From positions 22,278 to 86,277 of the IMG/VR virus record IMGVR_UViG_3300044970_001522: a DNA stretch of 64,000 nt; one strand, 5' to 3'. A program made the translations under genes and the position numbers. The notes under the pieces were generated by a model. The model was not told the DNA's origin and searched no databases. It saw only the letters and a program-made list of their open reading frames with translations. The DNA is from a virus. Taxonomy: Duplodnaviria > Heunggongvirae > Uroviricota > Caudoviricetes. Numbering within the stretch: the first letter of the stretch is position 1; every line of letters starts with the position of its first letter. This document shows, one piece after another, positions 33,862 through 58,343 of this stretch.

Positions 33862-35346
33862 ATGACAACGCCATCCTTTTTAAACGCACTCGAAAACGAG
33901 TTTAACCAAACCATCACCGCTAACGGTGCAAAGGCATACAAGTCCACCGAGTCTAAGTGCCTGGACCTCTTTGGAAAGATTGCAGCTTGCCGTGACAACA
34001 TCAGCGAAGCAACTCGCCTATTCAATCTTGCTTATGCCGAAAACCCTGAGACCGCAACTCGAATCTTGTTTTGGGCACGCGACATTCGTGGGGGCCAGGG
34101 AGAGCGAAAGATCTTTCGAGAAGTTTTTAAGGAACTCGTCCGCAATGATGCTGCAATTGGTGCCAGGCTAGTTAGCCTGATTCCACAGTACGGTCGCTGG
34201 GATGATGTGGTAGCCCTCGACGGTACCTTAGTTTGGGGCATCGCACTCGAAGCAATTAAGGCACAACTGAACGCCGACCTAAATACGGAAGTTGGAAAGT
34301 CAGTGTCACTTCTGGCAAAGTGGCTGCCTTCCATTAACGCTTCCAGCCAGGACTCTAAGAGGATTGGCCGAAAAATTGCCGAAGCAATGGGTTGGACCGA
34401 GAGACAGTACCGCAAGGCACTGACTGCCCTCAGGACCCAAGTCAAAATTGTTGAGCAGCCAATGTGTGCCCGTGAGTGGGAAAGCATTGACTATAGCAAG
34501 TTGCCTTCTCGGGCCGGATTCATGTATCGTAAAGCCTTTGCAAAGCGCGACGGCAACCGTTACCAATCCTACCTTGACTCAGTAGAAAAAGGTGAGGCAA
34601 AAATCAATGCCGGTACGATCTACCCGTATGAGATTGTTCACAAGTACCTTTACGGGGGCGATAGGAGTGACCAAACCCTGAACCTAATGTGGGAGGCTCT
34701 ACCCAACTACATGGAGGGAGAGCAGCTAAACGGCCTGGTAATTGCCGACGTCTCAGGATCAATGGGAAATAACGGCGGCATGCCCATGGCGGTTTCAATC
34801 TCGCTGGCGATGTACATCGCTGAGCGTAACACCGGGGCATGGAAGGATAAGTTCCTAACCTTCTCCGGAAGTCCGCAGTTGCAGTCGGTTACAGGGAGAA
34901 ACGTTGCTGAGCGTGTTCGTAACCTTAGTCAGGCCGACTGGGGTGTGAATACAGACCTGCAAGCAGTCTTCAATCTTGTGTTGGCTACCGCAACGAGGAA
35001 CCATATTCCTGAGGGGGAAATGCCGCGCAAGCTCATCATTGTCTCAGACATGCAGTTTGATTCCTGCTGCAGAAACAACTCAGTGACAAACTTTGAGGCG
35101 GTGCGAATCAAGTATGCTCAAGCAGGGTATTCCTTGCCGGAACTTGTCTTCTGGAATGTTAGCTCTAGCGGCAACGTACCTGTGAAAATGCATGATACGG
35201 GGACTTGCCTGGTCTCCGGATGCAGCCCTTCAATCCTGAAAGCTGTGCTTACTGGCGGGGTAATTACGCCTGTAGGGGTTATGCGTGACGCTGTTTACAC
35301 TGAAAGGTACGACGCTGTCGGTGCCGTATTTGCTGAAGGAGCATGA
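33862..35346 (+). CDS. vWA-domain protein with N-terminal helical domain (possible Ro60/TROVE-like or DUF2828-like)
   Basis: MIDAS motif VIADVSGSMGNNGG (DxSxS) at about 60% of the length, preceded by ~290 aa of predicted helical sequence, which is Ro60-like domain order. Confidence 0.45.
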   Translation: MTTPSFLNALENEFNQTITANGAKAYKSTESKCLDLFGKIAACRDNISEATRLFNLAYAENPETATRILFWARDIRGGQGERKIFREVFKELVRNDAAIGARLVSLIPQYGRWDDVVALDGTLVWGIALEAIKAQLNADLNTEVGKSVSLLAKWLPSINASSQDSKRIGRKIAEAMGWTERQYRKALTALRTQVKIVEQPMCAREWESIDYSKLPSRAGFMYRKAFAKRDGNRYQSYLDSVEKGEAKINAGTIYPYEIVHKYLYGGDRSDQTLNLMWEALPNYMEGEQLNGLVIADVSGSMGNNGGMPMAVSISLAMYIAERNTGAWKDKFLTFSGSPQLQSVTGRNVAERVRNLSQADWGVNTDLQAVFNLVLATATRNHIPEGEMPRKLIIVSDMQFDSCCRNNSVTNFEAVRIKYAQAGYSLPELVFWNVSSSGNVPVKMHDTGTCLVSGCSPSILKAVLTGGVITPVGVMRDAVYTERYDAVGAVFAEGA

Positions 35347-35528
35347 TCTGGATCAAATTGCCGGGTGCCCTCTGCATCGTTCTGCAAACCGTTTTCATAA
35401 CTTTGAAGGTAGAGGGTCAGGTTTCCTGGCCCTGGCTCACAGTGCTTTCACCAACCCTTGTGCCAATCTTTCTACTTGGGTTGGGAGCCCTTTGGATGAT
35501 TCTTCAACTACTTTCGCATGAGAAATAA
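35343..35528 (+). CDS. small membrane protein, WPWL-motif paralog 1
   Basis: LKVEGQVSWPWLTVLSPTLVPIFLLGL. Confidence 0.4.
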   Translation: MIWIKLPGALCIVLQTVFITLKVEGQVSWPWLTVLSPTLVPIFLLGLGALWMILQLLSHEK

Positions 35529-35531
35529 CTA

Positions 35532-35720
35532 ATGTTTGAGAATCTCGCAGTTTCGTTAATGACAGCCCAGGGTCTCCTCCTCGGGTTGAAATTAACGGGG
35601 CAAATAACCTGGCCATGGCTCTCAGTGTTTAGCCCAATCGTAATCTTAGGCTCTGTGTCCATTTTGTCACTCATTCTGCTTCTGCTACTGTCGAATTTGT
35701 ATGCAAGGTCAACCAAGTGA
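35532..35720 (+). CDS. small membrane protein, WPWL-motif paralog 2
   Basis: LKLTGQITWPWLSVFSPIVILG. Confidence 0.4.
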   Translation: MFENLAVSLMTAQGLLLGLKLTGQITWPWLSVFSPIVILGSVSILSLILLLLLSNLYARSTK

Positions 35721-35963
35721 ATCGCATAGCGAGTGGGCTCCCTTTTCCTCTTCTTTGCGGGAGGAGTACGACAGTCTTGTAGAAAACTTACGAAGTCGTG
35801 GCCTAGACAATGTTATTTCTTGGGAGAACTTTCTAAGAGACTTCACACCCTTAGTTGGACACGAAATACCAACCGAGTACCGCCATTACGACGTAAGAGT
35901 GTCGGAAGATGGTGAAGTTATCGAGTTGTACAAGGGGACTCGACGAGTAACAAATTTGAGCCA

Positions 35964-36029
35964 GGGCGGTTAACCGCCCCTAGCGGTTCGGTTTTCACCC
36001 TTTCCTTCGCTCAGTAAAACCGCTATAGT
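35964..36029 (+). promoter_or_regulatory. cassette promoter TTTCCT-N17-TATAGT, ATG at +7
   Basis: GGGCGGTTAACCGCCC perfect palindrome upstream. Confidence 0.5.
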
Positions 36030-36073
36030 TCACGTATGGAAAACACCCCCCAGAACACAGCATCTTCTCGGGG

Positions 36074-36478
36074 ATGCCTCCTTTCTCCGTTAGCCCTAAA
36101 GCAATGTGGAAGTTTAACAAACCCCTGAGTCAATTGCGCTCTTTTCGTGACAGTTTACTGAGGGACGACCAACACACCTACGCCGCAAGGCTTGGAGAAA
36201 TTGTGGAGTCCCTCGAAGAGTGGTATGGAGGTGCCATGGAGTCGAACGAAGAAGCAGGGGGAGCAGGTGGCTTTGATGAGCTAAGCAGAGTGTACAGAGA
36301 GGCAAACTCAATCTACGAGTCTAAGCTCTCCGATGAAGCCAAGTATGACCTTATTTTCTCCAAGAAGATATCGCAAAAAGTCCCCTTCTCGTGGTACGAC
36401 CCTGACACATCTTACGAGGAGGACGTAAGGTGCTTTATGAACGCCTTTCGAGAGTATATGGGTGGTGCCCCGCGATAG
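36074..36478 (+). CDS. hypothetical protein (start uncertain: 36074 or 36104)
   Basis: a 30-codon leaderless ORF at 36036 in another frame precedes it. Confidence 0.3.
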   Translation: MPPFSVSPKAMWKFNKPLSQLRSFRDSLLRDDQHTYAARLGEIVESLEEWYGGAMESNEEAGGAGGFDELSRVYREANSIYESKLSDEAKYDLIFSKKISQKVPFSWYDPDTSYEEDVRCFMNAFREYMGGAPR

Positions 36479-37199
36479 GCCCCGAGTGAGGGTCTCTGCT
36501 TGAGTCCGTTTACCCTTAGCACTCTCAACCTATGATACGGATGTGGAGCTCAAGGTTCCACTCCTTGCCCCCCTTAACCTACACCCAGCAAAGCGGTGCG
36601 AAAAACCGAAGAGTAGCCAAGTGGTTAGGCAGCGGTAATGCAAAAAGATTACCTAGCTTAGGTAATTCAGCAACTACCCAATACGCAAAAGGAACCGCCA
36701 TACGCAAGTTCGAATCTTGCCTCTTCGACTTTGCCTTCGGCAAACATAGATAGTTCAGCGATTTACCCCAACTCTCTTGGGAAAAACAACTATCTAGCTA
36801 AACCCAAACTTTATCTCCATAATGATAGTAAAAGACCTTTATTCTCGATCCAAGTAATTTGCCAAGCAAACTTAGATAGAACAAAAAGATATGACACCCA
36901 CTGAAGCAGGTTTTGACGGTGACAAGGGGATACGGTTAGACGTGCCGAGTAAAGGGATAGGGCATGACTTATTGTATCGACTGAAGCGAGGTAAGACCCT
37001 ACCCAAAAACTCCCAAAACAAATCGTTAAAGAACATGCTGATCTGGCTTTACCCCGACGACAGCGACTCTAAGCTCTTGTTTTGTAACTCTGACGGGGAG
37101 TGGTTTAATTTAACCTTTGAACCCACTAACATTGGAGAGTAGCTCAAGGGCTAAGAAAAAACTTTCAATATCGCTCCAGGTAGTTTTCGGATCAAATAC

Positions 37200-37311
37200 G
37201 GGACCGTAGCTCAACTGGTAGAGCACGAAAAGTTATCTTGACAAAGATACATCAGCAATTAAATTACCTCTTTTAAAGGCGCGGTTGCAGGTTCGAGTCC
37301 TGCCGGTCCCA
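37200..37311 (+). ncRNA. tRNA-like RNA with ~40-nt irregular hairpin replacing the anticodon arm
   Basis: perfect 7-bp acceptor stem (GGGACCG/CGGTCCC), canonical D arm (TAGCTCAACTGGTAGAGCA), T arm (GCAGG-TTCGAGT-CCTGC) and discriminator A; 61 nt lie between the D and T arms instead of the usual ~22. Confidence 0.5.
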
Positions 37312-41785: not shown

Positions 41786-41857
41786 GCCCTGGTAGCTCAG
41801 TGGAAGAGCACTGTCCTTCTAAGACACCGGTCGTGGGTTCGAATCCCTCTCAGGGCG
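41786..41857 (+). tRNA. tRNA-Arg (anticodon TCT), slightly irregular stems
   Basis: acceptor GCCCTGG/TCAGGGC, D arm GCTC-AGTGGAA-GAGC, anticodon loop CTTCTAA, T loop TTCGAAT; no encoded CCA. Confidence 0.55.
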
Positions 41858-42111: not shown

Positions 42112-42200
42112 GGGCGTGTGGTGTACGGTGCACAGGGACCATTATAAAGTCCTCTCCGGCAGATTACCGGCTAGTTAGGGTTCGACTCCCTACACGCCTA
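42112..42200 (+). tRNA. type II (long variable arm) tRNA-like gene with 9-nt anticodon loop; isotype ambiguous
   Basis: acceptor GGGCGTG/CACGCCT, T arm TAGGG-TTCGACT-CCCTA, variable stem-loop CCGG-CAGATTA-CCGG, anticodon stem GGGAC/GTCCT enclosing CATTATAAA. Confidence 0.4.
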
Positions 42201-42290
42201 CTTAGTTTCAAGTCCTCGAAAACTCGTTAAAGAACACACCCACAGGCCATATCCGGTGAACGACACAGGAGTGGCCCACCACGGTGACAA

Positions 42291-42375
42291 GGAAGAGTGG
42301 CTGAGCGGCCGAAAGCAGCAGCTTCGAACACTGTAGAGGGTTAAACCTCCGGGGGTTCAAATCCCCCCTCTTCCG
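42291..42375 (+). tRNA. tRNA-Ser (anticodon CGA), type II
   Basis: acceptor GGAAGAG/CTCTTCC; D arm GCT-GAGCGGCCGAA-AGC nearly identical to bacterial tRNA-Ser; loop TTCGAAC; variable arm GAGG-GTTAAA-CCTC; T arm GGGGG-TTCAAAT-CCCCC. Confidence 0.55.
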
Positions 42376-43795: not shown

Positions 43796-44392
43796 GTGCC
43801 GAAAAGTATTCTCTGCCAAATTGACCCCCGAGGGCGCCTACAAAAACCTGAAACAATTCAGGAGTACGGAAAGCTTCGGGACTACATGATTCAAAGGCCC
43901 TGGGAGTCGCTCAGTGACGGGGTCTTCCTTGAGCTAGTTACCGAGAAAGGATGTACCTTTTACGGTTGTCTGTTCAAAGGACTCGACCTTATGGAGCTTC
44001 AGTATCAGCGTTTGTGCTGGCATACGCAAACTCTCATTGGAGTGGATTTTGACAAGTGTGAGGTTAACCCTGGGAGAATGGTCAAGCTTTACACTGAGCT
44101 AGGCTACAAGCCTTGGCTCGCTTACCGAACGTTTTCTGACGGCCAACACCCCGGAAAAAGCTCATACCGACTCCTGTGGAAAGTTGACGTGAATCTAAAT
44201 GTTTCCTACGAAGAAACTCATGGCTTTATCAAAGCACTTGCCGCGTTAGCTGGAAAGGGGTTGGCGGACAAGCATAGCATGGACCCTAGCAGAATGTGGC
44301 AAGGTTCTCGAAAGGGGTACGTGCACTACGACCCTGAAGCCCCTTTGCTCGACCTGACTGGACAACCGGACCCTAAAACACCTGACACTTAG
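43796..44392 (+). CDS. archaeo-eukaryotic primase (AEP/PrimPol)-like protein
   Basis: TLIGVDFDKCE (motif I DxD), SDGQHPGKSSYRLLW (motif II-like), SMDPSRMWQGSRKG (motif III-like). Confidence 0.3.
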   Translation: MPKSILCQIDPRGRLQKPETIQEYGKLRDYMIQRPWESLSDGVFLELVTEKGCTFYGCLFKGLDLMELQYQRLCWHTQTLIGVDFDKCEVNPGRMVKLYTELGYKPWLAYRTFSDGQHPGKSSYRLLWKVDVNLNVSYEETHGFIKALAALAGKGLADKHSMDPSRMWQGSRKGYVHYDPEAPLLDLTGQPDPKTPDT

Positions 44393-44401
44393 AAAACATC
44401 T

Positions 44402-44905
44402 GTGAAAACCGCTGTAACGTTCGGGAGGTTTAACATAGGCCACCCCGGCCATGTTGAGCTAGTTAAAAAGTTGCTCACCCTTGGTTCGACCGCTAAAGTG
44501 TATGTGTCCTTAGGGAGACAGAATAACGACTGGGACCTTCGAGTTTTACTTCTGCGGACGCTGTGCCGCCAAGCGAGCATTGACCTGAGTAGGGTATCAT
44601 TTCTAAAGGCCATCGATCCCTATGCGGGGTTGTCAGATGTTCTAAAAAGCAGGAAGCCAAGCGAGGTGGTTCTCGTTCTGGGGTCTGACCAAGCTTCACT
44701 CGGATTGCAGCTTTCGCACACCTTCGGAGTCTCTTTTCATGAGAACGAACGAAGTGGTTCGAGCACGGCGCTGAGAAAGGTTTTAGACCAAGGCAAAAAC
44801 CCTGCACCTTTTCAGGGGAACAGGTACGCTTTAAAACTTGCAACACTCTTGAGAAACAATGAAAAGTTCCGAAAAGCTCAAAGAAAAGCTAAGGTGTCTG
44901 CTTAG
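44402..44905 (+). CDS. class I nucleotidyltransferase (HxGH), candidate NMN/NaMN adenylyltransferase
   Basis: FGRFNIGHPGHVELV HIGH motif; GTG start. Confidence 0.35.
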   Translation: MKTAVTFGRFNIGHPGHVELVKKLLTLGSTAKVYVSLGRQNNDWDLRVLLLRTLCRQASIDLSRVSFLKAIDPYAGLSDVLKSRKPSEVVLVLGSDQASLGLQLSHTFGVSFHENERSGSSTALRKVLDQGKNPAPFQGNRYALKLATLLRNNEKFRKAQRKAKVSA

Positions 44906-45106
44906 GAGCTACCCTGGCGTCAAAGTGGGTGCGTCATGGCCCTGGAACGACCTGGAGTTTAGAGAGATTGCCTGGGTGGTTCAAGACTATGTAAACAACA
45001 GCGGAGACGTTGTAAATGAGGACCCCCTCCACGAGTGGATTGAAGAGTATAACTTTTTTCGCACTGAGACCTTAAGTTAAGGCTGGCTGGGAAACCGTTC
45101 GCCCTG

Positions 45107-45151
45107 AGGCGGTTTCCCCTCCTTTCCCTTGCGAAGAGACAACGCTATAAT
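45107..45151 (+). promoter_or_regulatory. cassette promoter with TATAAT, leaderless ATG at +7
   Basis: GAGGCGGTTTCCCCTCC. Confidence 0.5.
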
Positions 45152-45157
45152 ATAAGT

Positions 45158-45631
45158 ATGGAAAACATACCCGAAGCACCCGAAGCATACGTGATGGTCG
45201 GAGCCCCTGGGTCCGGAAAGTCGACTCATGTATCAAAGCTGCTAAGTCTTCACCCAGATGCCGTTGTAATTTCCGGCGATGAAATCCGCGCTGAGCTCTA
45301 CGGAAACGCGGACATTCTAGGAAATTACGTAGAAATCCACGACCGCATGCTTGAGATTCTGGAGGAGAGTGTAGGTCGGACTATAGTTATGGATGGTACC
45401 CACTACAAGGCAGCTTACCGCAAGGAAGCAATTGCTACGCTGAACTCGTACGGTTACGATAAGGTTACTGCAGTAGTCATTGAAAAGCCCCTCACCGTTT
45501 GCCTACACCAGAATGCTTCTCGCGAGCGCAGGGTTCCGGAAGAAGTGATTGAGCGCATGCACGCCTCCTTACAAGCTTCCCTCAAGAATATCACCAACGA
45601 ACCCTTCCACCGTATTGACTTTGTATACTGA
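45158..45631 (+). CDS. P-loop polynucleotide-kinase-like protein (predicted leaderless)
   Basis: YVMVGAPGSGKST Walker A at the N-terminus as in Pnk kinase domains; ATG 7 nt after -10 TATAAT. Confidence 0.5.
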   Translation: MENIPEAPEAYVMVGAPGSGKSTHVSKLLSLHPDAVVISGDEIRAELYGNADILGNYVEIHDRMLEILEESVGRTIVMDGTHYKAAYRKEAIATLNSYGYDKVTAVVIEKPLTVCLHQNASRERRVPEEVIERMHASLQASLKNITNEPFHRIDFVY

Positions 45632-45635
45632 CGCA

Positions 45636-46364
45636 ATGATAACTTACAGCAACAAATTACATCAAGGTGACGTAGTTGCCCTGGGGGACATTCACGCGAC
45701 ATGGACTCTTTTCGAACAATTTCTGAATTGGGTGAAAGGGTCTCAAGCCACTGTCGTACTTTTAGGTGACATGGTTGATCGTGGTGGGGGTGACCTGAAA
45801 GTTTTGGAGCATACGAAAAATCTCCTCGACGATCCGGAAAGTTGGGGGCTTCAAGCCTTTTATGCCCTGATGGGGAACCACGAGAGGATGTTTCTTGATG
45901 CTTTGGAAGACCCATTCGGCAGTAGCTACGTGCTGTGGGTTCAAAACGGCGGAAACTATGACCAAGTGGGTGAAATGGAGAGGGAACATAAGGAGTGGGT
46001 TCGAAATCTACCCTTGTATATGACAATTGCGGACACTCTCTTCATTCACGCGGGGATCTACCCCGGTCACGACCCTGCAAAGCTCATTGCCGATGGAAGA
46101 GGCGAGGCACTCCTGTGGATTCGACAACCTTTCTTGACCTATGGGCCGGAGTTCGAAGGGTGGAACCCACGACTTAAGAAAGTCGTTCATGGTCACACAC
46201 CAACCAACTTCGAGGAACCACCTCAGGACCACCTCCCCGTTGTGAAGGGACAACGCGTAAATATAGATACGGGTGCGTTTATTAAGACGAAGGGTCGCCT
46301 AACCGCTTACAACGTCACTCAAAATACTTTTCACCAATTTTCACGGCAACCTCGCAAGGACTAG
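45636..46364 (+). CDS. calcineurin-like metallophosphoesterase (Pnkp-type phosphatase module candidate)
   Basis: GDIHA...GDMVDRGG...GNHE metallophosphatase motifs; immediately follows the kinase gene. Confidence 0.55.
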   Translation: MITYSNKLHQGDVVALGDIHATWTLFEQFLNWVKGSQATVVLLGDMVDRGGGDLKVLEHTKNLLDDPESWGLQAFYALMGNHERMFLDALEDPFGSSYVLWVQNGGNYDQVGEMEREHKEWVRNLPLYMTIADTLFIHAGIYPGHDPAKLIADGRGEALLWIRQPFLTYGPEFEGWNPRLKKVVHGHTPTNFEEPPQDHLPVVKGQRVNIDTGAFIKTKGRLTAYNVTQNTFHQFSRQPRKD

Positions 46365-46409
46365 TCTGGAGCTAAGTTCCGACACCAAAACCACACCAGA
46401 ACCTAAACA

Positions 46410-47294
46410 ATGAAACTGCTTCTCGTAGACACATCCGCGCTATTTTTTCGCTCTCGCTCAGCTCTCTGTCGAGCTATGGGTGAAATGGTTACGAGCTATG
46501 GAGCACCGGTAACTGGGACTTATGGGTTTTGCAACGCCTTATTCGCCGTAATGGCTCAGTACGAGTACGATTGCGTAGTTCCTTGTACCGATAAGGGTGG
46601 GAACTTTCGCAAGAAAGAATCTGGTACTTATAAGGCGAATCGAGAAAAAGCCAGCGTTGAGCACTACTCCGACCTTTCCCTCCTGGTTGAAGACGTCCTT
46701 CCAGCTCTTGGTTTTTCGCCAGTGGGTGCCCAGGGTTTTGAGGCGGACGATGTTGTAGCTCATATTTCTCGTAACTCTCCTGGGTACAGTGAAGTACACA
46801 TTTTGACTTGCGACAAGGACTTGCTTCAGCTTGTCAACGACAGAGTAAAGGTGCTGCTTTTCAACTCAGCTAAGAAAATGGAGCTGGTTGACATTGAGGG
46901 TGTTAAAGGACACTTCGGTGTTCCCCCATCAGACGTCAAGTTCTTCAAGGCTTTGTCTGGGGACTCCTCAGATAACATATCAGGTGTATCCGGCGTTGGC
47001 CCTAAGACCGCTGTGAAGATAATCCAAGAGTGCCACACCAGCGGTACAAACTCAGAGTTGTCCCTTGCTGATCGTATAGCATTTCATCCTAAGGTTATTC
47101 CCACTGCGTCCACATTCTTTGGAAACCTTCGCCTGGTCACTCTTGAGGACGATGTTCCCGATTTGTCGTGGTACGCGTCTTCACCGCCGTCTGAACAGAG
47201 TGTAGAAGCACTCTTTGAGGGTTTAGAGTTCAAGTCGTACTTGAAGCCAGCACGGTTGAGCAAGATTCTGAAAACACTCAAGGTTGTTTCGTAG
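46410..47294 (+). CDS. 5'-3' exonuclease / flap endonuclease (T4 RNase H / PolI 5'-exo family)
   Basis: LLLVDTSALFFRS N-terminal motif and GVSGVGPKTAVKIIQE helix-3-turn-helix. Confidence 0.65.
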   Translation: MKLLLVDTSALFFRSRSALCRAMGEMVTSYGAPVTGTYGFCNALFAVMAQYEYDCVVPCTDKGGNFRKKESGTYKANREKASVEHYSDLSLLVEDVLPALGFSPVGAQGFEADDVVAHISRNSPGYSEVHILTCDKDLLQLVNDRVKVLLFNSAKKMELVDIEGVKGHFGVPPSDVKFFKALSGDSSDNISGVSGVGPKTAVKIIQECHTSGTNSELSLADRIAFHPKVIPTASTFFGNLRLVTLEDDVPDLSWYASSPPSEQSVEALFEGLEFKSYLKPARLSKILKTLKVVS

Positions 47295-47571
47295 GACGAA
47301 TAACTACCGATCACACCTTCGGACCATGAAATACCCACGTGTCCGCCCCAGACTCACTTACCTCCGCATCCTTGGAAATATTGCGTTGGTAGTTGGACAA
47401 TTTGTTTTGCTTTTCTTGGACCGCAAGGTGGGCCTATTAATTCTGATTACAGGGAGCACTCTGAGCCTTCCATTCTTTGTAAAGAAAAAGCAGTGGGATG
47501 TGGTAGCTGTCATCGTAGTTGGAATAACCCTGAACGTCTTTGGGCTAATACACAATCCAGTCCCTAACTAG
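47284..47571 (+). CDS. membrane protein
   Basis: multiple hydrophobic segments. Confidence 0.3.
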   Translation: MFRRTNNYRSHLRTMKYPRVRPRLTYLRILGNIALVVGQFVLLFLDRKVGLLILITGSTLSLPFFVKKKQWDVVAVIVVGITLNVFGLIHNPVPN

Positions 47572-47586
47572 TCCTTGTGGGAGAGT

Positions 47587-47653
47587 GGGCGGTTAACCCT
47601 CCTTCATGGGGCGGTTTCCACCCTTTGTTTCTGCCTCGCAGAAACGGTATAGT
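47587..47653 (+). promoter_or_regulatory. double cassette TTGTTT-N17-TATAGT, leaderless ATG at +7
   Basis: GGGCGGTTAACCC then GGGGCGGTTTCCACCC; spacer TTTCTGCctcGCAGAAAC. Confidence 0.6.
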
Positions 47654-47659
47654 AAATGT

Positions 47660-47818
47660 ATGGAAAACGACTCAGTCCGCTCCAAACTTGGACCCCGCCA
47701 AAAGGGTCGGAAACGAAAGGGCAAGACCAAGCCCCAAGCTCTTCGCCAAGCGAGAGCTCGCCGCGCCAGCCTCCTTCAAAAGTTGACCCCTCAGTCCCAC
47801 CCGCAAGCAAAGCAATGA
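47660..47818 (+). CDS. small highly basic protein (predicted leaderless)
   Basis: ATG 7 nt after the -10; KLGPRQKGRKRKGKTKPQALRQARARR; stop overlaps the next ATG (ATGA). Confidence 0.35.
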   Translation: MENDSVRSKLGPRQKGRKRKGKTKPQALRQARARRASLLQKLTPQSHPQAKQ

Positions 47819-48093
47819 CCTGCACCCCTGCCACTGAGAAGAGTGAAACTAATGCTTCTGCCCTTGCGTCTGAGTACAACGGGGTTTGGGCGTCTGTTCA
47901 CGATGCCCGAAAGAAGCTTATCCAAGCGAACTGCCCCTCTCGCGGTACTAGGGATGAGGAAGCATGGGAGTTATTCTGCGAGGAACGGGAAGCGGCTCTT
48001 GAAAAGCTCAGGCAAGTAGAGGACTACCTCATGGACTTGGCTTTCCAATACTCATGCGAAGCTTCTCGCGATCTTTCTGTGGAGCATGTGTAG
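47815..48093 (+). CDS. hypothetical protein
   Basis: ATGA-coupled to 47660 gene; the longer track ORF from 47656 in this frame overlaps the promoter. Confidence 0.35.
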   Translation: MTCTPATEKSETNASALASEYNGVWASVHDARKKLIQANCPSRGTRDEEAWELFCEEREAALEKLRQVEDYLMDLAFQYSCEASRDLSVEHV

Positions 48094-49040: not shown

Positions 49041-49442
49041 GTGACACCTAAAAATAACCCCTTAGTAGTGTTTGACATTGACATGACACTCACGAGTGAG
49101 TGGTATTACGAAGATAATGTTGCAACGCTTCGAGCCAATTTGCCACTCGTTCAACTTGCGACATTGCTGGCTGACTCCGGGGTTTCAATCGTGATATCCA
49201 CTGCTCGCCCAAATCGTCTTCGAGCCAACTCAGAAAACTGGCTACAAAGTGTGGGTGTTAAGTTCGACGCCTTATACATGAGAGAGGACGGGGACGATCG
49301 CCCCGACCACTACGTTAAGACCGAGCAAGCTCTCGCAATTATTGAAGATTTCGGACGTCCTTCGCTTTGGTACGACGACAACCAAGACAACTGTAAAGTT
49401 GTGAGAGAACTTGGGATTCCTTGTGTTCAGGTTATGCAATGA
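49041..49442 (+). CDS. HAD-superfamily phosphatase
   Basis: VVFDIDMTLT (DxDxT motif I). Confidence 0.5.
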   Translation: MTPKNNPLVVFDIDMTLTSEWYYEDNVATLRANLPLVQLATLLADSGVSIVISTARPNRLRANSENWLQSVGVKFDALYMREDGDDRPDHYVKTEQALAIIEDFGRPSLWYDDNQDNCKVVRELGIPCVQVMQ

Positions 49443-53872: not shown

Positions 53873-55360
53873 ATGACATTTGTGACAGAAAACTTAACGA
53901 AGAGTTCTAAAGCCGCTTCAACCGGAAATGAAAAATGCAACGATAACTGTTCTGTAAGTGAAGCCGTTGTCTGTGATTTAAGCTCTCGCCAAGAGCCCCG
54001 CCGAATCGACCTCGACAAGCTATACGAGTGTGACCCGAAAGACTACATTGGCTATTTCGCCGACGAAACCTCTTACGACAACCTTATTCAAGAAGACTGC
54101 GACGTTTATGTGGGCGGAGTGAAAGTTGTTGCCTTTCGTAAGGCACTTTTTCCGAAGCTGCGCGATGGTTCGAAAGGTAGCCCGGAAACTTGGAAATACT
54201 TCCGCTGGGCAGCAAGAGACTTGTACTCAGACCAACGAGGCCTAGTTGCTGGTAGAGAACTAACTACCCAACTCGAGATAAGGGTAACCAACGGTATTCT
54301 AAACTTCTTCAAGAAGGCGATGGCCGGTCAAGTCACTGACTTGGAAGAGGCACTGAAAATTGCTTCTCTCTCCCCCGACATGTCAAAGCTCACTGTCCGA
54401 GTGAATGATGTTAAAAAGGACTTCCCAGAAATTGAGAAAGCTTTAGAATCTATCGAGAAGGAACTTCGCAAGAAAACGCTGAGCGAAGAAAGAAAGGTAG
54501 AGCTGAAGGAAGCGAAGGGTAGAGAACTTGCGAAGTGGTTCCCGACGTGGCTATCCAAGACTTGGAGTGTATCTAAGGACAAGGTTTCTGAGGCGAAACG
54601 TGCCGACGACAGGTATGTGGGAAAACAATACCGTTCAAACAAGTGCTATTCCAACGTGATTGGTGCTTTTGATAGGGGTGCACGTAACCCTTACGGTCGT
54701 TTGACCGCAACAACTGTAAAAGACTATGAGGGGTTCGTAAGCCACACGGATATTTATCAGACAGCTTGTTCCGCACTCAAAGAGACCCTAAACACTCCGG
54801 AAAACCCTCGGTGGGACCGCCTTCACGAACGGTTCAGTAACGTGAAAGACCCGCACTATAACCTCTTCGGTACGGTGTTCACTGCCCTTACGTTAAACTG
54901 GAACTTCCGTTGTGCGATGCACTACGACGGTAATAACTGCGAAGGTGGTATTGCCGTTCTTACTGCAATTACTCAAGGGGAATATGACGGCCATTACCTT
55001 GTGTTCCCTGAAATTCGTTGCGCTTTCGACCTTCGTGATGGGGACTTTATTGCCGGTGACAATCAGGGACTGATTCACGGTAACACTGCAATGATTCCGA
55101 AGACGCCTGACGCTGAACGAGTTTCGTTCGTTTTCTATTCACGAGAGCGCATGACCGCTCTTGACGATATGGAGTGTGAGGAGTGCCGCCGAGATTTCAT
55201 GCGATACGCAGCAGACAATCACAAGGAGTATGGAAAGGGTCACAAGACCTGGAATGGTGTTTGGAGCGGAATGTGGAAATCACCGGAATGGATGACGTAT
55301 AAAGCCGAACACGGCTTAGAACGTTGCTCAAATACTAACTATTGGGGCACCGAGAATTAA
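53873..55360 (+). CDS. TET/JBP-family 2OG-Fe(II) dioxygenase-like protein
   Basis: AMHYDG (HxD) ... 52 aa ... LIHGNT (distal His) ... RVSF 14 aa later (2OG Arg), spacing as in JBP/TET catalytic cores; ~300-aa N-terminal extension. Confidence 0.4.
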   Translation: MTFVTENLTKSSKAASTGNEKCNDNCSVSEAVVCDLSSRQEPRRIDLDKLYECDPKDYIGYFADETSYDNLIQEDCDVYVGGVKVVAFRKALFPKLRDGSKGSPETWKYFRWAARDLYSDQRGLVAGRELTTQLEIRVTNGILNFFKKAMAGQVTDLEEALKIASLSPDMSKLTVRVNDVKKDFPEIEKALESIEKELRKKTLSEERKVELKEAKGRELAKWFPTWLSKTWSVSKDKVSEAKRADDRYVGKQYRSNKCYSNVIGAFDRGARNPYGRLTATTVKDYEGFVSHTDIYQTACSALKETLNTPENPRWDRLHERFSNVKDPHYNLFGTVFTALTLNWNFRCAMHYDGNNCEGGIAVLTAITQGEYDGHYLVFPEIRCAFDLRDGDFIAGDNQGLIHGNTAMIPKTPDAERVSFVFYSRERMTALDDMECEECRRDFMRYAADNHKEYGKGHKTWNGVWSGMWKSPEWMTYKAEHGLERCSNTNYWGTEN

Positions 55361-55744
55361 CCCTGAAGCCGCCGAAGCGGCAGTTAACGAACAAAACACA
55401 GCATTACTAACAATGGACACAAACAAACAGCTTAACGGTGGCGATGCGGAGCGGCAAGTTGCCTCGGAGAGTATTGAACCCATTGAAGCAACAACAACCA
55501 TTACGGTGGAACTCCCGGTAAGCTTCGCTGAGGCTTTCCGGGCACTTGCTCAACGAGAGGGCTTGTCGGAGGGTGACCTTATTGTACGATCGCTGGGGCT
55601 CTACTCCGTTGCATCTCAAGCCGAGAGTGAAGGGTACGGACTAACGTTTACTCGCATCGAAGGAACCAACGACCTGACCGCCAAGGAAGCAATTCGCATT
55701 GAAGACGAACCTGCCTCAAATTTGTTCATTCCGGGTAAGAGGTG

Positions 55745-55789
55745 AGACGGTTTCCCGCCCTTGCTTCTACAGCGTAGACACGGTAAAAT
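55745..55789 (+). promoter_or_regulatory. cassette promoter TTGCTT-N17-TAAAAT
   Basis: GACGGTTTCCCGCCC; spacer TCTACagcGTAGA. Confidence 0.55.
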
Positions 55790-55812
55790 AACCAAAGACA
55801 AACGAGCCACAG

Positions 55813-56406
55813 ATGGAAATCTACTTCAGCACAGACGTTGAGACCGACGGACCGATCCCCGGACCTAACAGCATGCTTTCGCTTGGGTCGGCTGCGTTTT
55901 CCCCTGACGGAAAACTCCTGGGCACCTTCTCTGTGAACCTAGAGACCCTCCCCGGAGCCGACCCGGACCCCACTACCCAAGCGTGGTGGGAGTCTCACCC
56001 GGAGGCCTACAGAGCAACCAGAGAGAAGGTTTTACCTGCCGACCGAGCCATGCTCGCCTTTTCTCAATGGGTCAGTGCTACAGCAAGCTCGTTCTCTCAA
56101 GCGAATGTTCGAAAAGTTTCTCCAGTGTTCGTGGGTTTTCCTGCAGGGTTTGACTTTCTTTTCGTGTATTGGTACCTTATTCGGTTCACTGGACAGTCCC
56201 CATTTAGCTTCTCGGCGCTTGACGGTAAGACCTATGCTATGGCCTTGCTCAAAAGAGGATACCGGGAGTCCACCAAACGGAACTACCCGAAAGAGTGGTT
56301 TCCCCTCGAAAACAAGCATACTCACATCGCTGTAGAGGATGCTATTGAACAAGGTCGTATTTTCTGCAATATGCTTCGATCCAATCTTGACTCTACGTGT
56401 CAATGA
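55813..56406 (+). CDS. DnaQ-like 3'-5' exonuclease (DEDDh)
   Basis: FSTDVETDG (Exo I), C-terminal HIAVEDAIE (Exo III H-x4-D). Confidence 0.55.
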
Positions 56407-56591
56407 CTAACAAAGTTAAAGATTACTGCGAAAAACTTAGCTTGTCCCTGAAGTTAAGGGGAGAGGGAAACGAGGACGCGGAGGAGGCCTTGCTCGACGA
56501 GCTTGACCTTCTGTGGCTGAAGTTGTCGAGAGAAGAGGCCCAGTGGGTTAATGCCAATATACTGTCGTTGTTTCCTAACTAATTACCCACC

Positions 56592-57356
56592 GTGATGAAA
56601 AATCCTACTTTCCTACTCCAGTCCGGAGGACCACTACAAATCGAAAAGGTTGCGTGTAGTTTCTCCTGTTACCCTGTCCAATATTGCTCGTTTTATGATC
56701 TGTCGAAGTTAGACCCTAAAGGTTTCATGGCTACATTGATTCCTGTGGGATCGGTGGAATTTGTTCAAGCTTACAGTGAACACGTAGGTATTGTGCTACC
56801 TGAGGACTTTTCCTACGGGTGTAATGCAGAACTGAAAAAGTACCTTATGAGGTCCGTTCGACAAGGAGTGTACGGTGAAGCAACCTTGGAAGACTTTGTG
56901 AAGCCAACCGCAATAAAGTTGTTTACCGGGGACATCAAGAGAGAGCTCGAACTGAAGATACCTGGACTAATTTCTGATAACACTTCAGTGTGGATCTCTC
57001 AGGCTGTGCCCTTTGAGTCGGAATTTCGGTTCTACATTCACGACTTCATTGGGGGTGGTAAAATTCAGGGGTGGTCGCGGTATGACGACAAGCCCGTAAG
57101 AAACCCCGAACCCGACTTCGGCCTGATTGAAGAGATTATGGGTGTGCTAGAGGCAAATATTGCGCCTGGTGCTTACACGATTGACATCGGCTGGAGGCCT
57201 GACCTGAATCGGTACTGCCTAGTTGAACTTAACGATGCGTGGTCGCTTGGGTTCTACGAAAATAGCGACCCGCAATCGAACCCACCAACTCGACAGCAGT
57301 ACGCTGACATGCTGGTGTCTCGCTGGAGACAAATTATCTTTTGCAACCTAGTGTAA
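56592..57356 (+). CDS. ATP-grasp family enzyme
   Basis: C-terminal YTIDIGWRPDLNRYCLVELNDAWS (ATP-grasp E-x-N Mg site) and upstream FVKP lysine region. Confidence 0.4.
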   Translation: MMKNPTFLLQSGGPLQIEKVACSFSCYPVQYCSFYDLSKLDPKGFMATLIPVGSVEFVQAYSEHVGIVLPEDFSYGCNAELKKYLMRSVRQGVYGEATLEDFVKPTAIKLFTGDIKRELELKIPGLISDNTSVWISQAVPFESEFRFYIHDFIGGGKIQGWSRYDDKPVRNPEPDFGLIEEIMGVLEANIAPGAYTIDIGWRPDLNRYCLVELNDAWSLGFYENSDPQSNPPTRQQYADMLVSRWRQIIFCNLV

Positions 57357-57405
57357 CCACTGGATAACACAGTCGGAGATAAGAGGACGCGGCAAACGTC
57401 TACTC

Positions 57406-58272: not shown

Positions 58273-58278
58273 GCACCA

Positions 58279-58322: not shown

Positions 58323-58343
58323 TAGAACAGCTTCCGGCTACCA

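Follow-up and report, generated by a model that had tools for sequence, protein, structure and literature searches.

Background

What is the role of a small P-loop kinase gene and the metallophosphoesterase gene that directly follows it in a tailed phage genome? We address this question for positions 45158-46364 of a stretch of 64,000 nucleotides from a virus of the class Caudoviricetes (hereafter the window; all coordinates refer to it). An initial annotation treated the two genes as a split version of bacterial Pnkp and combined them with two RNA ligases, two HAD phosphatases, and a tRNA cluster into an RNA repair module.

T4 Pnk/Rnl tRNA repair counters the PrrC anticodon nuclease. According to the catalogue by Iyer et al. 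2021, large and jumbo phages carry tRNAs, Rnl ligases, Pnk, HAD phosphatases, whether stand-alone or in fusions, and now and then a calcineurin-like phosphatase; an RNA-binding protein of TROVE-like type is described there together with a tRNA-like partner (PMC7824862).

The reading that we prefer, with slightly better than even confidence, is that a large uncultivated phage has a break-repair toolkit with scattered genes, which most likely acts on RNA, and that the kinase and the phosphoesterase (MPE1) are the core of it that heals 5'-ends and 2',3'-ends. This reading is based on domain identities, conservation of catalytic residues, signals of co-transcription, and recurrent linkage of the genes among phages.

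Organization of the locus

The initial description of the locus is borne out for most of its parts by ORF, Pfam, and tRNA checks. The kinase gene (45158-45631, plus strand) encodes 157 amino acids and ends with TGA at 45629-45631. The listed open reading frame of MPE1 starts with TTG at 45549. The ATG at 45636 gives a product of 242 amino acids, which is the choice of the gene caller on six public contigs. The true start of MPE1 is this ATG, not the TTG, and it is separated from the kinase stop codon by 4 nt. Chance reading frames are excluded and both genes are real, because the identical kinase is present on 16 contigs, the two proteins have hundreds of homologues with invariant catalytic residues, and their AlphaFold models have pLDDT of 92.7 (kinase) and 96.3 (MPE1).

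A predicted promoter module precedes the kinase (45089-45151, plus strand). It includes a hairpin, in which GGGAAACCG (45089-45097) pairs with CGGTTTCCC (45110-45118), and a TATAAT box at 45146-45151. The kinase ATG is 6 nt further on, and this short distance predicts a leaderless mRNA. About 30 copies of the module (hairpin, TTGCCT, 17 nt, TATAGT) are found on the plus strand of the window. The module was detected by comparing relatives and searching the window for the hairpin motif; a generic sigma-70 scan called no promoter upstream of the kinase because the -35 element is weak. In diverged relatives the -10 box is kept 6-7 nt upstream of the kinase ATG, in many of them as TATAAT or TATAGT, and comparison thus backs the proposal that the kinase is leaderless.

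The next promoter module downstream occupies 47590-47653. Modules at 45110 and 47612 flank, on both sides, the kinase, MPE1, and a gene for a FEN-type 5'-3' exonuclease (46410-47294, plus strand; 5_3_exonuc_N 114 bits, 5_3_exonuc 48.5 bits), and these three genes are predicted to form one transcription unit. Whether FEN takes part in the repair function is uncertain.

Positions 44000-48000 gave zero blastn matches against 50,697 phage records. Relatives are seen at the protein level only, which means that cultured phages include no close relative of this one. When the kinase alignment was used to scan 185,579 genomes of bacteria and archaea, the kinase had no close relative there, and neither a host nor a prophage emerged. 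The matches obtained are distant and partial, with identity of at most 41%, and belong mostly to Saccharibacteria; the best one is partial (41% over 58 residues), and the top-ranked locus shows 36% over 83 residues.

The kinase

Pfam, NCBIfam, PHROG, PDB, and Foldseek comparisons place the stand-alone kinase in the polynucleotide-kinase clade, and 5'-OH activity is predicted for it. Its P-loop, GAPGSGKST, occupies residues 15-23. The Pfam match is AAA_33 (72.7 bits), whose kinases form a functionally diverse family. The top NCBIfam match is the kinase segment of Pnkp (11-152 of 851, 50 bits), the PHROG match is the kinase half of a polynucleotide-kinase family, and the best match among PDB sequences is the kinase of C. 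thermocellum Pnkp (CthPnkp; E 2e-8), although the similarity to Pnkp is only about 28% identity and 37-50 bits. The CthPnkp kinase domain is also the nearest solved structure (4gp6, TM 0.82, rmsd 2.4 A). Ranks 1-30 of the Foldseek list are occupied by CthPnk, Pnkp1, PSTK, T4 Pnk, fungal Trl1 kinase, and mammalian PNKP, and nucleotide or nucleoside kinases enter it only at rank 31 (UMP/CMP kinase). The initial annotation had named affinity to nucleoside or dNMP kinases as evidence against its reading; the kinase instead groups with polynucleotide kinases in NCBIfam, PDB, and Foldseek.

The catalytic residues match those of CthPnk. Residues G15, P17, G18, G20, K21, and T23 of the P-loop are invariant in homologues, with Ser or Thr at position 22; D41, R44, T81, R122, and R124 are invariant, too. 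D41, R44, and T81 align to D38, R41, and T80 of CthPnk, R122 aligns to R120, and both R124 and R125 are at the position of R123. In CthPnk, Lys21, Ser22, Asp38, and Arg41 are essential, and Thr80, Arg120, and Arg123 play supporting roles; the acceptor-site Asp is the general base, the Thr anchors the first phosphodiester, and the lid arginines touch the gamma phosphate (PMC3902929). By homology, the 157-aa protein would be a free-standing polynucleotide 5'-OH kinase in which Lys21 and Ser22 bind NTP-Mg, Asp41 deprotonates the 5'-OH, Arg44 and Thr81 grip the first phosphodiester, and lid residues Arg122 and Arg124 grip the gamma phosphate.

Two other substrates were considered. A zeta-toxin-like UNAG kinase was rejected: Zeta_toxin scores 36 bits, yet no such fold is among the top 50, and the protein comprises the kinase core alone. 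The second candidate is suggested by the neighbourhood. An NMNAT-like gene (CTP_transf_like, 44402-44905) precedes the kinase by 250 nt and is kept in that place in most close relatives; the phage has NAD+-related genes, and a PRPP-synthetase-like and NAMPT-like pair is encoded at 2107-4832. The kinase could accordingly phosphorylate nicotinamide riboside or another small molecule and form, with the NMNAT-like protein, a split NadR-like module of NAD+ salvage alongside this pair. Phage fusions of NMNAT and a P-loop NR kinase are known from the jumbo-phage catalogue (PMC7824862), and in Synechococcus phage S-CBWM1 the orthologue of a second phosphoesterase of the window, MPE2 (see below), adjoins NMNAT. 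However, similarity to AAA_28/NadR-type proteins is limited to the P-loop (17 bits), the top 50 Foldseek matches include no NadR or NRK structure, D41, R44, and T81 correspond to residues that hold the polynucleotide in CthPnk, and an NMNAT-like gene is found within 10 kb in none of 42 dereplicated clusters of distant kinase homologues. As the main reading, a split NadR or nicotinamide-riboside kinase was ruled out by sequence, fold, and context, and we regard it as scarcely probable at all.

We also looked for kinase-MPE fusions in the multi-domain neighbours scanned among the 150 nearest kinase representatives and found none; these neighbours are kinase+HD and kinase+unknown+WCX proteins.

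Phosphoesterases of the window

MPE1 (45636-46364, plus strand) is a binuclear metallophosphoesterase of lambda-phosphatase/NinI type according to Pfam (Metallophos, 46.4 bits), PHROG (NinI-like phrog_246, 135 bits), Foldseek, and comparison of its profile with PDB. It shares its fold and motifs (GDxH, GDxxDR, GNHE, H, GH) with lambda NinI and ApaH-type enzymes. In homologues, the motifs GDxH, GDxxDR, GNHE, H138, and HGH are invariant; so are D18, H20, D45, R49, N81, H82, H138, and H187, and H185 is nearly so. R49 and H82 correspond to Arg237 and His264 of CthPnkp, which that enzyme requires for its monoesterase and 2',3'-cyclic diesterase activity. In sum, the kinase is followed, in the same predicted transcription unit, by an active-looking binuclear phosphoesterase.

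The initial annotation saw in this neighbour the counterpart of the Pnkp phosphatase, a view that the comparisons do not support. Lambda phosphatase (1g5b) is first in Foldseek and scores 58.5 bits in the profile search against PDB, in spite of an identity of about 22%, whereas the CthPnkp phosphatase (4j6o) has rank 15 in Foldseek (TM 0.66) and is fifth by profile score (40 bits). The other leading matches are a Shewanella tyrosine phosphatase, ApaH, and PPP phosphatases. By these comparisons, MPE1 appears closest to lambda phosphatase/NinI and shows no specific likeness to Pnkp. Its substrate is unreadable from sequence because the Pnkp phosphatase is no nearer to it than lambda phosphatase, ApaH, and PPP are.

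The Pnkp phosphatase is instead the top match of MPE2 (30051-30788, plus strand), a Pnkp/PrpE-like binuclear metallophosphoesterase of 245 amino acids located 15 kb from the kinase and likewise preceded by a promoter module (TATAGT-N6-ATG). It was absent from the initial annotation. Its best NCBIfam match is the phosphatase segment of bacterial Pnkp (221-290 of 851, 33.6 bits), with PrpE second; its best PDB match is 4j6o both by single sequence and by profile, the latter match being weak (E 4e-7). Residues D13, H15, D40, N72, H73, H134, H199, and H201 are invariant. In Pnkp, the Arg237 position is required for monoesterase activity and the His sets cyclic-diesterase activity. MPE2 retains this His and has Ser at the Arg position, features with which it might conceivably serve solely as a 2',3'-cyclic phosphodiesterase.

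The two HAD proteins of the window, both assigned to RNA repair in the initial annotation, fared differently. The gene at 49041-49442 (plus strand) encodes a stand-alone protein of 133 amino acids with the DxDxT motif (DIDMT), which is predicted to be a polynucleotide 3'-phosphatase of T4-Pnk type. It matches PF25109 HAD_PNKP (63 bits, cutoff 27.6), positions 158-291 of 295 in phrog_505, i.e., the phosphatase half of phage Pnk, and the phosphatase domains of Pnkp1 (4xrp) and T4 Pnk in PDB, and its assignment is confident. In most of the close lineage it is kept 0.7-5 kb from the kinase-MPE1 pair.

The HAD protein at 58344-58700 has DVDDT and matches the EcbF/BcbF capsule-phosphatase family. 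It is assigned to a sugar pathway of DNA hypermodification because its gene is surrounded by those for a TET-associated glycosyltransferase, an NTP-transferase, and an APH-type kinase, with a TET/JBP gene near; S-CBWM1 has a sugar cluster of the same type. Its role in RNA repair was dropped on these grounds.

RNA ligases

Both RNA ligases named in the initial annotation belong to bona fide RNA-ligase families by Pfam, NCBIfam, and PDB. They are located 20-34 kb from the kinase, with ORFans around. The first (11333-12442, plus strand, 369 amino acids, motif I KYDGS) is Rnl1-like: it matches PF09511 (RNA_lig_T4_1, 51.7 bits, cutoff 28.3), phrog_562 (133 bits), and T4 Rnl1 (2c5u, E 3e-7). In the alignment with T4 Rnl1, KYDGS is paired with KEDGS, and EG...K.K corresponds to motifs IV and V. 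Its TIGR02308 score of 44.9 is below the equivalog cutoff of 242, hence it is a divergent member of Rnl1.

The second (24502-25554, plus strand, 350 amino acids, motif I KLEGT) has an N-terminal OB domain and belongs to the Rnl5 family, known from Naegleria and Deinococcus (TIGR02306 176.6 bits, cutoff 151.15). Its Pfam matches are PF09414 RNA_ligase (112 bits) and PF21189 PHA02142 OB (77.6 bits). The N-terminal OB is shared with Naegleria gruberi NgrRnl and Deinococcus radiodurans DraRnl, and the alignment with NgrRnl (5cot) covers the full length (254 bits, E 2e-74). Unlike these two enzymes, the ligase of the window is encoded by a phage.

tRNAs and tRNA-like RNAs

The tRNA cluster of the initial annotation stands in part. 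ARAGORN and Rfam agree on tRNA Arg-TCT (41786-41857, plus strand) and tRNA Ser-CGA (42291-42375, plus strand), with Rfam scores of 59.5 and 50.7 bits. The type-II-like element of 90 nt between them (42112-42201, plus strand) is called by ARAGORN only; its Rfam score of 25.9 bits for tRNA-Sec is below threshold, and shuffled sequences fold just as well (z -0.9). The cluster is possibly tied to the toolkit as a source of substrates or replacements.

A second RNA-related region extends from 33862 to 37311 and is a possible accessory of the toolkit. It contains a gene for a DUF2828+DUF7788 protein (33862-35346, plus strand; 126 and 174 bits in Pfam; "RNA-binding protein" phrog_850) and two tRNA-like RNAs of 112-122 nt without an anticodon loop (36607-36728 and 37200-37311, plus strand; Rfam tRNA 44.7 and 48.5 bits). 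The same elongated elements, with covarying arms, follow the DUF2828 gene in two further loci (L020 and L029). Comparison of the protein with PDB by sequence gave zero matches, so a relationship to TROVE/Ro is not confirmed.

One could combine this region with the properties of MPE2. In such a scheme, MPE2 would be the dedicated 2',3'-cyclic phosphodiesterase, MPE1 and the HAD protein would take 2'/3'-phosphates, and the repair enzymes would work with an RNP of the DUF2828/DUF7788 protein and the tRNA-like RNAs, analogous to Ro/Rsr-Y. We consider the scheme as a whole unlikely. The parts of the proposed RNP are linked to the kinase family in several phage lineages.

Gene neighbourhoods in other phages

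The kinase is directly upstream of MPE1 in every one of the 39 viral loci where MPE1 identity reaches 42% or more. The NMNAT-like, FEN, and HAD neighbours vary among these loci, and kinase-MPE1 is the most persistent pair in an otherwise rearranging neighbourhood. Since the loci of the close lineage come from related genomes, part of this adjacency is inherited synteny. In a sister lineage (L040, L041, L043, and L044) the order is MPE1-kinase-MPE2, and an Rnl1-like gene lies 3 kb upstream in three of the four loci (L040, L043, and L044). MPE2 homologues, which are directly downstream of the kinase in this lineage, are 4-9 kb away in other relatives. A rough NJ tree divides the kinase-linked MPEs into two clades, the second one deep.

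Within 10 kb of the kinase, the 42 dereplicated distant clusters have an RNA ligase in 13 cases, an MPE in nine, a DUF2828 homologue in five, and FEN in none. In one locus (L064) the order is Rnl5-kinase-cREC, with Rnl1 and a methyltransferase upstream; cREC is a cyclic-phosphate-processing domain.

These data bear on the possibility that kinase, MPE1, and FEN handle DNA ends, i.e., 5'-OH/3'-phosphate nicks and flaps that arise from replication or host DNase and are then passed to a DNA ligase. FEN shares the predicted unit and comes after MPE1 in the majority of close relatives, both DNA and RNA serve as substrates of CthPnk and T4 Pnk (PMC3902929), and thymidylate kinase, TET/JBP, and SprT-like genes nearby indicate heavy DNA metabolism and modification. 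Yet FEN accompanies none of the 42 distant kinase clusters, compared with 13 for RNA ligases, and close relatives L007/L038, L034/L121, and L124 retain kinase-MPE1 without FEN. In addition, two RNA ligases are present in the window and no DNA ligase was seen there with Pfam and NCBIfam. We infer that the substrate is RNA rather than DNA, and a function in DNA-end processing seems quite improbable to us.

A stronger alternative concerns MPE1 itself. The kinase may work in the kit with the HAD protein at 49041, as a split T4 Pnk, and/or with MPE2, while MPE1 is an independent NinI-type enzyme that inherited gene order keeps beside the kinase. Its substrates could be proteins, which it would dephosphorylate at Ser/Thr/Tyr, or else Np4N alarmones or Np4N/NAD RNA caps, if it is an ApaH-like hydrolase. 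The top matches of MPE1 agree with this, and the genome already has, in MPE2, a candidate that resembles Pnkp more, as well as a HAD protein of Pnk type. Phage homologues with identity of 35% or less mostly have no kinase nearby (a kinase is found at only 6 of 40 distant MPE-seeded loci), and S-CBWM1, the nearest isolate, and locus L136 have an MPE1 orthologue (41% identity) and no kinase. On the other hand, the pair outlasts other neighbours in a rearranging region, survives inverted in the sister lineage, and has a parallel in the second, deep MPE clade, which is kinase-linked as well. A spacing of 4 nt or an overlap between the two genes points to coupled expression. Moreover, lambda phosphatase acts in vitro as a 2',3'-cyclic phosphodiesterase that cleaves 2',3'-cyclic nucleotides (PMC2190708). 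The independence of MPE1 is, in our estimation, appreciably probable while well short of even.

A proposed dispersed toolkit and its relation to known systems

Under the preferred reading, which includes MPE1 in the toolkit, the kinase would restore 5'-phosphates, and the co-transcribed MPE1 would be a Mn/Ni-dependent diesterase-monoesterase of lambda-phosphatase type that probably opens 2',3'-cyclic phosphates and/or strips 2'/3'-phosphates. MPE2 and the HAD 3'-phosphatase likely share the work on 2',3'-ends, although this reading gives no explanation for the redundancy of three different 2',3'-phosphoesterases. Healed ends (5'-phosphate and 3'-OH) would then be sealed by the Rnl1-like ligase in single-stranded loops, such as tRNA anticodon loops, or alternatively by the Rnl5 ligase at duplex nicks. 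The purpose would be to undo the cuts that host ribotoxins or abortive-infection nucleases make in tRNA or other RNA.

An RNA repair module, as initially proposed, is retained as regards the kinase, both ligases, the HAD protein at 49041, and linkage in other phages; the HAD protein at 58344 is not part of it, and the phosphoesterase next to the kinase shows no specific likeness to Pnkp. The toolkit is a variant of the T4 Pnk/Rnl and bacterial Pnkp systems, and every part of it is of a known kind.

With T4 Pnk and Rnl1 (and Rnl2) the toolkit shares its logic, i.e., a phage kinase, a 3'-phosphatase, and an Rnl1-type ligase. Both domains of T4 Pnk are matched here, by the kinase and the HAD protein at 49041, and motifs I, IV, and V of T4 Rnl1 have aligned counterparts in the ligase at 11333. 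However, the kinase and HAD domains are fused in T4 Pnk, and here each has a gene of its own, with 3.4 kb between the two and a separate transcription unit predicted for each. Two metallophosphoesterases are additional compared with T4, Rnl5 with its N-terminal OB takes the place of Rnl2 as the second ligase, and the genes are spread over 38 kb. The same kinase and HAD proteins match the halves of Capnocytophaga gingivalis Pnkp1, which has the T4-like kinase-HAD architecture. Pnkp1, Rnl, and Hen1 form a stoichiometric three-protein complex encoded by one operon; no such operon or methyltransferase was seen here.

Bacterial Pnkp, which forms an RNA repair system with Hen1, also pairs a kinase with a following metallophosphoesterase of lambda-phosphatase type, and its phosphatase is the best match of MPE2. 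It is a fusion of about 850 amino acids (TIGR04075), whereas the genes are separate here, and the kinase (50 bits) and MPE2 (33.6 bits) are far below the cutoff of 750. The adjoining MPE1 is nearer to lambda phosphatase, and the Pnkp-like MPE2 is 15 kb off. The ligases are of Rnl1 and Rnl5 types and not the Pnkp ligase domain, the gene order is inverted in the sister lineage, and no Hen1 or methyltransferase domain was found in the gene tables for positions 1-55 kb of the window or in the ORFs scanned at 55-60 kb. A literal split Pnkp, also as an evolutionary statement, is not supported by these observations. The kinase and the HAD protein at 49041 equally resemble a split T4 Pnk. As to lambda NinI, it has no link to a polynucleotide kinase, unlike MPE1.

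The components and their overall logic are already established, and no new principle is involved. A similar repertoire is present in the jumbo-phage catalogue, in its accessible portion; the present lineage is outside the isolates analysed there, and that portion contains no description of the set of a kinase with lambda-like, Pnkp-like, and HAD phosphoesterases or of the conserved kinase-MPE1 pair (PMC7824862).

If the preferred reading is correct, a modular kit for RNA repair is present in a widespread freshwater/environmental phage lineage, whose contigs reach about 280 kb and occur in many metagenomes. Its parts would be of mixed types: T4 (Pnk kinase, HAD, Rnl1), bacterial Pnkp (kinase and metallophosphoesterase), and Deinococcus/Naegleria (Rnl5). 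This would be further evidence for RNA-cleaving host defences as a general selective pressure on large phages. It would also provide small free-standing end-healing enzymes (157-245 amino acids) for characterization or use as reagents. The kinase-MPE1 pair is, in addition, a concrete setting in which to address a long-standing question, the natural substrate of lambda-NinI-type phosphatases.

Genome setting and reality of the genes

The window is gene-dense and belongs to a large phage-like genome, with a GC content of about 0.50 and nearly all genes on the plus strand. None of 50,697 phage records matched its segment 44000-48000 at the DNA level, and neither this search nor a scan of bacterial and archaeal genomes with the kinase allowed a host to be inferred. 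Judged by single proteins, the nearest isolates are cyanophages and a Limnohabitans phage. An identical kinase is encoded on 16 public contigs from metagenomes, which reach 133 kb; the contigs that carry its relatives reach 280 kb.

The kinase gene (45158-45631, plus strand) encodes 157 aa with GAPGSGKST at residues 15-23. It is followed by the metallophosphoesterase gene MPE1 (45636-46364, plus strand). The MPE1 ORF was listed from TTG 45549; gene callers report a 242-aa product from ATG 45636, which lies 4 nt past the kinase stop codon. Both are real genes, since each has a large family of homologues with invariant catalytic residues and a predicted model of high pLDDT (92.7 for the kinase, 96.3 for MPE1).

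The kinase belongs to the polynucleotide kinase clade

The best Pfam match of the kinase is AAA_33 (72.7 bits). Among NCBIfam models the kinase segment of bacterial Pnkp comes first (positions 11-152 of 851), followed by PSTK. The PHROGs search ranks the ATPase family phrog_2071 first (73.6 bits) and phrog_505, the kinase half of phage polynucleotide kinase, second (64.8 bits); a 737-aa phage kinase-phosphoesterase-ligase family is matched as well. The closest solved relative by sequence is the kinase domain of Clostridium thermocellum Pnkp (CthPnk; E 2e-8), then PSTK, Pnkp1 and T4 Pnk. CthPnk is also the top Foldseek match of the kinase model (TM 0.82, rmsd 2.4 Å), ahead of Pnkp1, PSTK, T4 Pnk, the fungal Trl1 kinase and mammalian PNKP, and no nucleotide or nucleoside kinase stands above rank 31 in this ranking.

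CthPnk cannot do without Lys21, Ser22, Arg41 and Asp38, which acts as general base; its Thr80 holds the first phosphodiester in place, and the gamma phosphate is contacted by Arg120 and Arg123 of the lid (PMC3902929). These residues align to K21, S22, D41, R44, T81, R122 and R124/R125 of the window kinase. Across 18 family members, with identities as low as 51%, they do not vary, except that position 22 is Ser or Thr and that only R124 of the R124/R125 pair is invariant. The initial annotation had taken the kinase for a polynucleotide-type enzyme rather than a nucleoside or dNMP kinase, and sequence, fold and catalytic residues agree with this. The enzyme belongs to the polynucleotide kinase clade, and we regard its predicted polynucleotide kinase activity as highly probable.

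An exhaustive search (E up to 0.001) collected 4662 relatives of the kinase. Most of the best 150 consist of the kinase alone, with a length of about 150 aa. Those multi-domain relatives that were scanned were kinase+HD proteins and kinase+unknown+WCX proteins of about 700 aa, and no kinase-metallophosphoesterase fusion was among them.

Two metallophosphoesterases

The motifs of the binuclear metal site are invariant in MPE1: G17-D18-x-H20, G44-D45-x-x-D48-R49, G80-N81-H82-E83, H138 and (H185)-G186-H187. Its best matches are lambda phosphatase and NinI (phrog_246, 135 bits). Lambda phosphatase ranks first in the Foldseek search (1g5b) and in the profile search against PDB (58.5 bits, full length), where the Shewanella tyrosine phosphatase, ApaH and PPP phosphatases follow. 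The phosphatase domain of CthPnkp, the full C. thermocellum enzyme, takes fifth place in the profile search (40 bits) and 15th in Foldseek, yet its TM of 0.66 is among the highest. Thus the proposed pair of a kinase and a binuclear metallophosphoesterase holds, but the Pnkp-like identity given to MPE1 is not borne out: as far as sequence tells, MPE1 belongs to the lambda-phosphatase/ApaH/Pnkp-phosphatase group, is not specifically Pnkp-like, and has a substrate that the sequence does not specify.

Arg237 and His264 of CthPnkp are required for its monoesterase and 2',3'-cyclic diesterase activity, and their equivalents are kept in MPE1. Lambda phosphatase itself hydrolyses 2',3'-cyclic nucleotides (PMC2190708). 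We put the chances that MPE1 acts on nucleic-acid ends at about even.

A second metallophosphoesterase gene, MPE2 (30051-30788, plus strand), had been overlooked and was flagged through the corresponding weak Metallophos gene in the gene table of a relative. MPE2 is Pnkp/PrpE-like. Among NCBIfam models it matches bacterial Pnkp best, in the phosphatase segment (positions 221-290 of 851, E 1e-8), and PrpE next; its best PDB match is the CthPnkp phosphatase domain 4j6o, both for the single sequence and for a nine-sequence profile, to which 4j6o is almost the sole match (E 4e-7). In these nine sequences the metal ligands D13, H15, D40, N72, H134, H199 and H201 are invariant, and so is H73, the His264 equivalent. 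The Arg237 position holds an invariant Ser, followed by Arg in eight of the nine, and MPE2 carries SNHQ where GNHD/E is expected.

RNA ligases and HAD phosphatases

Family profiles and alignments bear out the annotation of two RNA ligases. The gene at 11333-12442 encodes a divergent Rnl1-like ligase, whose KYDGS aligns to KEDGS of T4 Rnl1 and which keeps motifs IV and V. The one at 24502-25554 is a clear Rnl5 ligase that scores above the TIGR02306 cutoff, has an N-terminal OB domain and matches the Naegleria gruberi RNA ligase over its full length (254 bits). The 3' end of the Rnl5 gene is overlapped by about 290 nt by ORF 25264-26397 (377 aa), one of the few on the minus strand, which has a weak homing-endonuclease PHROG match. 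In the gene table of a relative (locus L178), the 0.9 kb directly after the ligase are without a gene, and a shorter minus-strand gene (186 aa) lies about 2 kb downstream of the ligase. The ORF may be a mobile endonuclease insertion.

Two HAD proteins had been assigned to the same repair module. The one at 49041-49442 (motif DIDMT) is indeed a phosphatase of T4 Pnk type: it matches PF25109 (63 bits), the phosphatase half of the PHROG polynucleotide kinase, and the phosphatase domains of Pnkp1 and T4 Pnk in PDB. The other (58344-58700, motif DVDDT) is of the EcbF/BcbF capsule-phosphatase type and is flanked by a TET-associated glycosyltransferase gene and by NTP-transferase and APH-type kinase genes, with a TET/JBP dioxygenase gene upstream. 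Its type and neighbours therefore place it in a DNA-hypermodification sugar pathway and rule it out as an RNA-repair phosphatase. The hypermodification cluster spans 53873-60143 and comprises the TET/JBP dioxygenase (53873-55360), an R2K ATP-grasp protein (56592), the glycosyltransferase (57406), the EcbF-type HAD (58344), the NTP-transferase (58622) and the APH-type kinase (59391); Synechococcus phage S-CBWM1 has a similar sugar-activation trio.

Promoter-like modules

A perfect TATAAT box, preceded by a hairpin, lies 6 nt upstream of the kinase ATG. Many relatives keep a -10 box 6-7 nt before this ATG despite differing spacers, whose place is taken in a few others by a longer leader and a Shine-Dalgarno-like sequence. 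The plus strand of the window carries about 30 copies of the module: a hairpin with 3' arm GGCGGTTTcCCcCC, TTGCCT/TTGTTT, 17 nt that are often palindromic themselves, and TATAGT/TATAAT. Examples are found at 10234, 13230, 18192, 21772, 30003, 38519, 42970, 45110, 47612, 52720 and 62119. The kinase promoter was not among the calls of a generic sigma-70 scan. Since several copies stand 5-6 nt before start codons (the Rnl1-like gene, MPE2 and kinase genes included), many leaderless mRNAs are predicted. The modules at 45110 and 47612 bracket the kinase, MPE1 and a 5'-3' exonuclease gene (FEN, 46410-47294), a predicted transcription unit, and the HAD gene at 49041 would belong to the next one.

Linkage across phages

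We searched viral contigs using alignments of the kinase and of MPE1 as seeds and located homologues of the window proteins in 176 loci. These loci were not sampled at random, the close relatives among them have a common ancestry, and the counts have no random-locus background; with this reservation, the kinase is directly upstream of MPE1 in all 39 loci with MPE1 identity of at least 42%, the two genes overlapping in some. In S-CBWM1 and in locus L136 an MPE1 orthologue (41% identity) is present and the kinase is lacking. In the nearest outgroup lineage (loci L040, L041, L043 and L044; kinase 38-43% identical) the order is inverted, MPE1-kinase, with the MPE2 homologue directly downstream of the kinase; in three of these loci (L040, L043, L044) an Rnl1-like ligase gene lies 3 kb upstream. 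The MPE2 homologue is 4-9 kb from the kinase in other relatives and adjoins the NMNAT gene in S-CBWM1.

On a rough NJ tree the kinase-linked metallophosphoesterases form two groups, the window clade with its L043/L044 sister and a separate deep clade (L046, L056, L062, L063, L098). Lambda-like metallophosphoesterases of phages elsewhere are mostly unlinked, with a kinase nearby in 6 of 40 loci. That MPE1 is an independent NinI/ApaH-type phosphatase, as its best matches would allow and its 39 linked loci would not lead one to expect, seems unlikely to us.

Each of the NMNAT-like, FEN and HAD neighbours is absent from some relatives (e.g. loci L007/L038, L034/L121 and L124). Among 42 dereplicated distant kinase clusters, an RNA-ligase homologue is present within 10 kb in 13, a metallophosphoesterase in 9 and a DUF2828 gene in 5, while a FEN or NMNAT-like gene is present in none. 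Locus L064 has the order Rnl1 - methyltransferase - ... - Rnl5 - kinase - cREC (a "cyclic-phosphate processing" domain). Judged by these counts and orders, RNA ligases and 2',3'-end phosphoesterases are recurrent companions of the kinase family across phages, a pattern that marks RNA end healing and sealing. DNA-end processing jointly with FEN, suggested by the shared predicted transcription unit, is improbable given this pattern of neighbours. Still further down we place a split NadR-like NAD salvage kinase: the NMNAT-like neighbour would suit it, the fold ranking and the distant clusters would not, and we consider it very improbable.

Proposed repair route and comparison with known systems

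In the RNA end-healing and sealing reading, which we consider somewhat more likely than not, the kinase would phosphorylate 5'-OH ends, and MPE1, probably with MPE2 and the HAD phosphatase at 49041, would convert ends with a 2',3'-cyclic phosphate or a 2'/3'-phosphate to 3'-OH. The two ligases, one Rnl1-like and one Rnl5, would then seal the healed ends. The same repair logic is found in T4 Pnk/Rnl1 and in bacterial Pnkp. The description of the system as a split Pnkp is not supported: bacterial Pnkp is one polypeptide, and the window parts are separate genes whose scores lie far below the Pnkp family cutoff; the ligases belong to other families, Hen1 was not seen among the window genes up to 60 kb, and the gene order varies. 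The system thus falls outside the Pnkp family. It can equally be described as a split T4 Pnk (kinase and HAD) with two extra metallophosphoesterases.

The window toolkit fits the repertoire known from comparative genomics of large phages (PMC7824862), which comprises tRNAs, Rnl ligases, Pnk, phosphatases of HAD or, now and then, calcineurin-like type, and a TROVE-like protein that is paired with a tRNA-like RNA. Its function is predicted, and it does not overturn current understanding. What deserves attention is the persistence of a free-standing kinase-MPE1 pair across relatives, the presence of three kinds of phosphoesterase (lambda-like, Pnkp-like and HAD) in one phage, and a possible link to DUF2828 and tRNA-like RNAs.

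tRNA-like RNAs and other observations

Two tRNA-like RNAs of 112-122 nt (36607-36728 and 37200-37311) match the Rfam tRNA family with 44.7 and 48.5 bits; ARAGORN calls neither. A DUF2828+DUF7788 gene (33862-35346; "RNA-binding protein" in PHROGs) precedes them by 1.3-1.9 kb, and in a 64%-identity relative three copies immediately follow the DUF2828 gene. Such RNAs occur in relatives at 1095-1840 of locus L029 and 3270-3381 of locus L020. Acceptor, D and T arms are retained and covary among five copies, and the position of the anticodon arm is taken by a hairpin, which covaries too and has an invariant CAGCA after it. They are therefore not tRNAs that decode. Together with the DUF2828 protein, which has no PDB match by sequence, they may form a phage particle resembling that of Ro and Y RNA.

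Between MPE2 and the DUF2828 gene stands a gene of Band_7/SPFH type (31616-32434, 272 aa), whose L178 orthologue matches Pfam Band_7. The viral contig L048 (167 kb; positions 2236-2810 and 590-9620) has a distant kinase homologue at the end of an array of about 20 tRNAs that includes a ROOL RNA (323 bits), and a DUF2828 gene 6 kb downstream.

The tRNA cluster of the initial annotation (Arg-TCT, Ser-CGA, a type II tRNA-like and a tRNA-like element) was confirmed. The type II tRNA-like, a 90-nt element at 42112-42201, is called tRNA-Ile(TAT) by ARAGORN; its acceptor stem has 8 bp, its anticodon loop 9 nt, and its variable arm is long. Its only Rfam match is a sub-threshold one to tRNA-Sec (25.9 bits), and its fold does not surpass that of shuffled sequence (z -0.9). 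Possibly it is a tRNA that is unusual or degenerate.

The overlapping genes 2107-3321 (PRPP-synthetase-like, 404 aa, with an N-terminal extension) and 3318-4832 (NAMPT-like, 504 aa), together with the NMNAT-like gene 44402-44905 just upstream of the kinase, look like a phage set for NAD+ salvage or reconstitution, which possibly counters NAD+-depleting defences.
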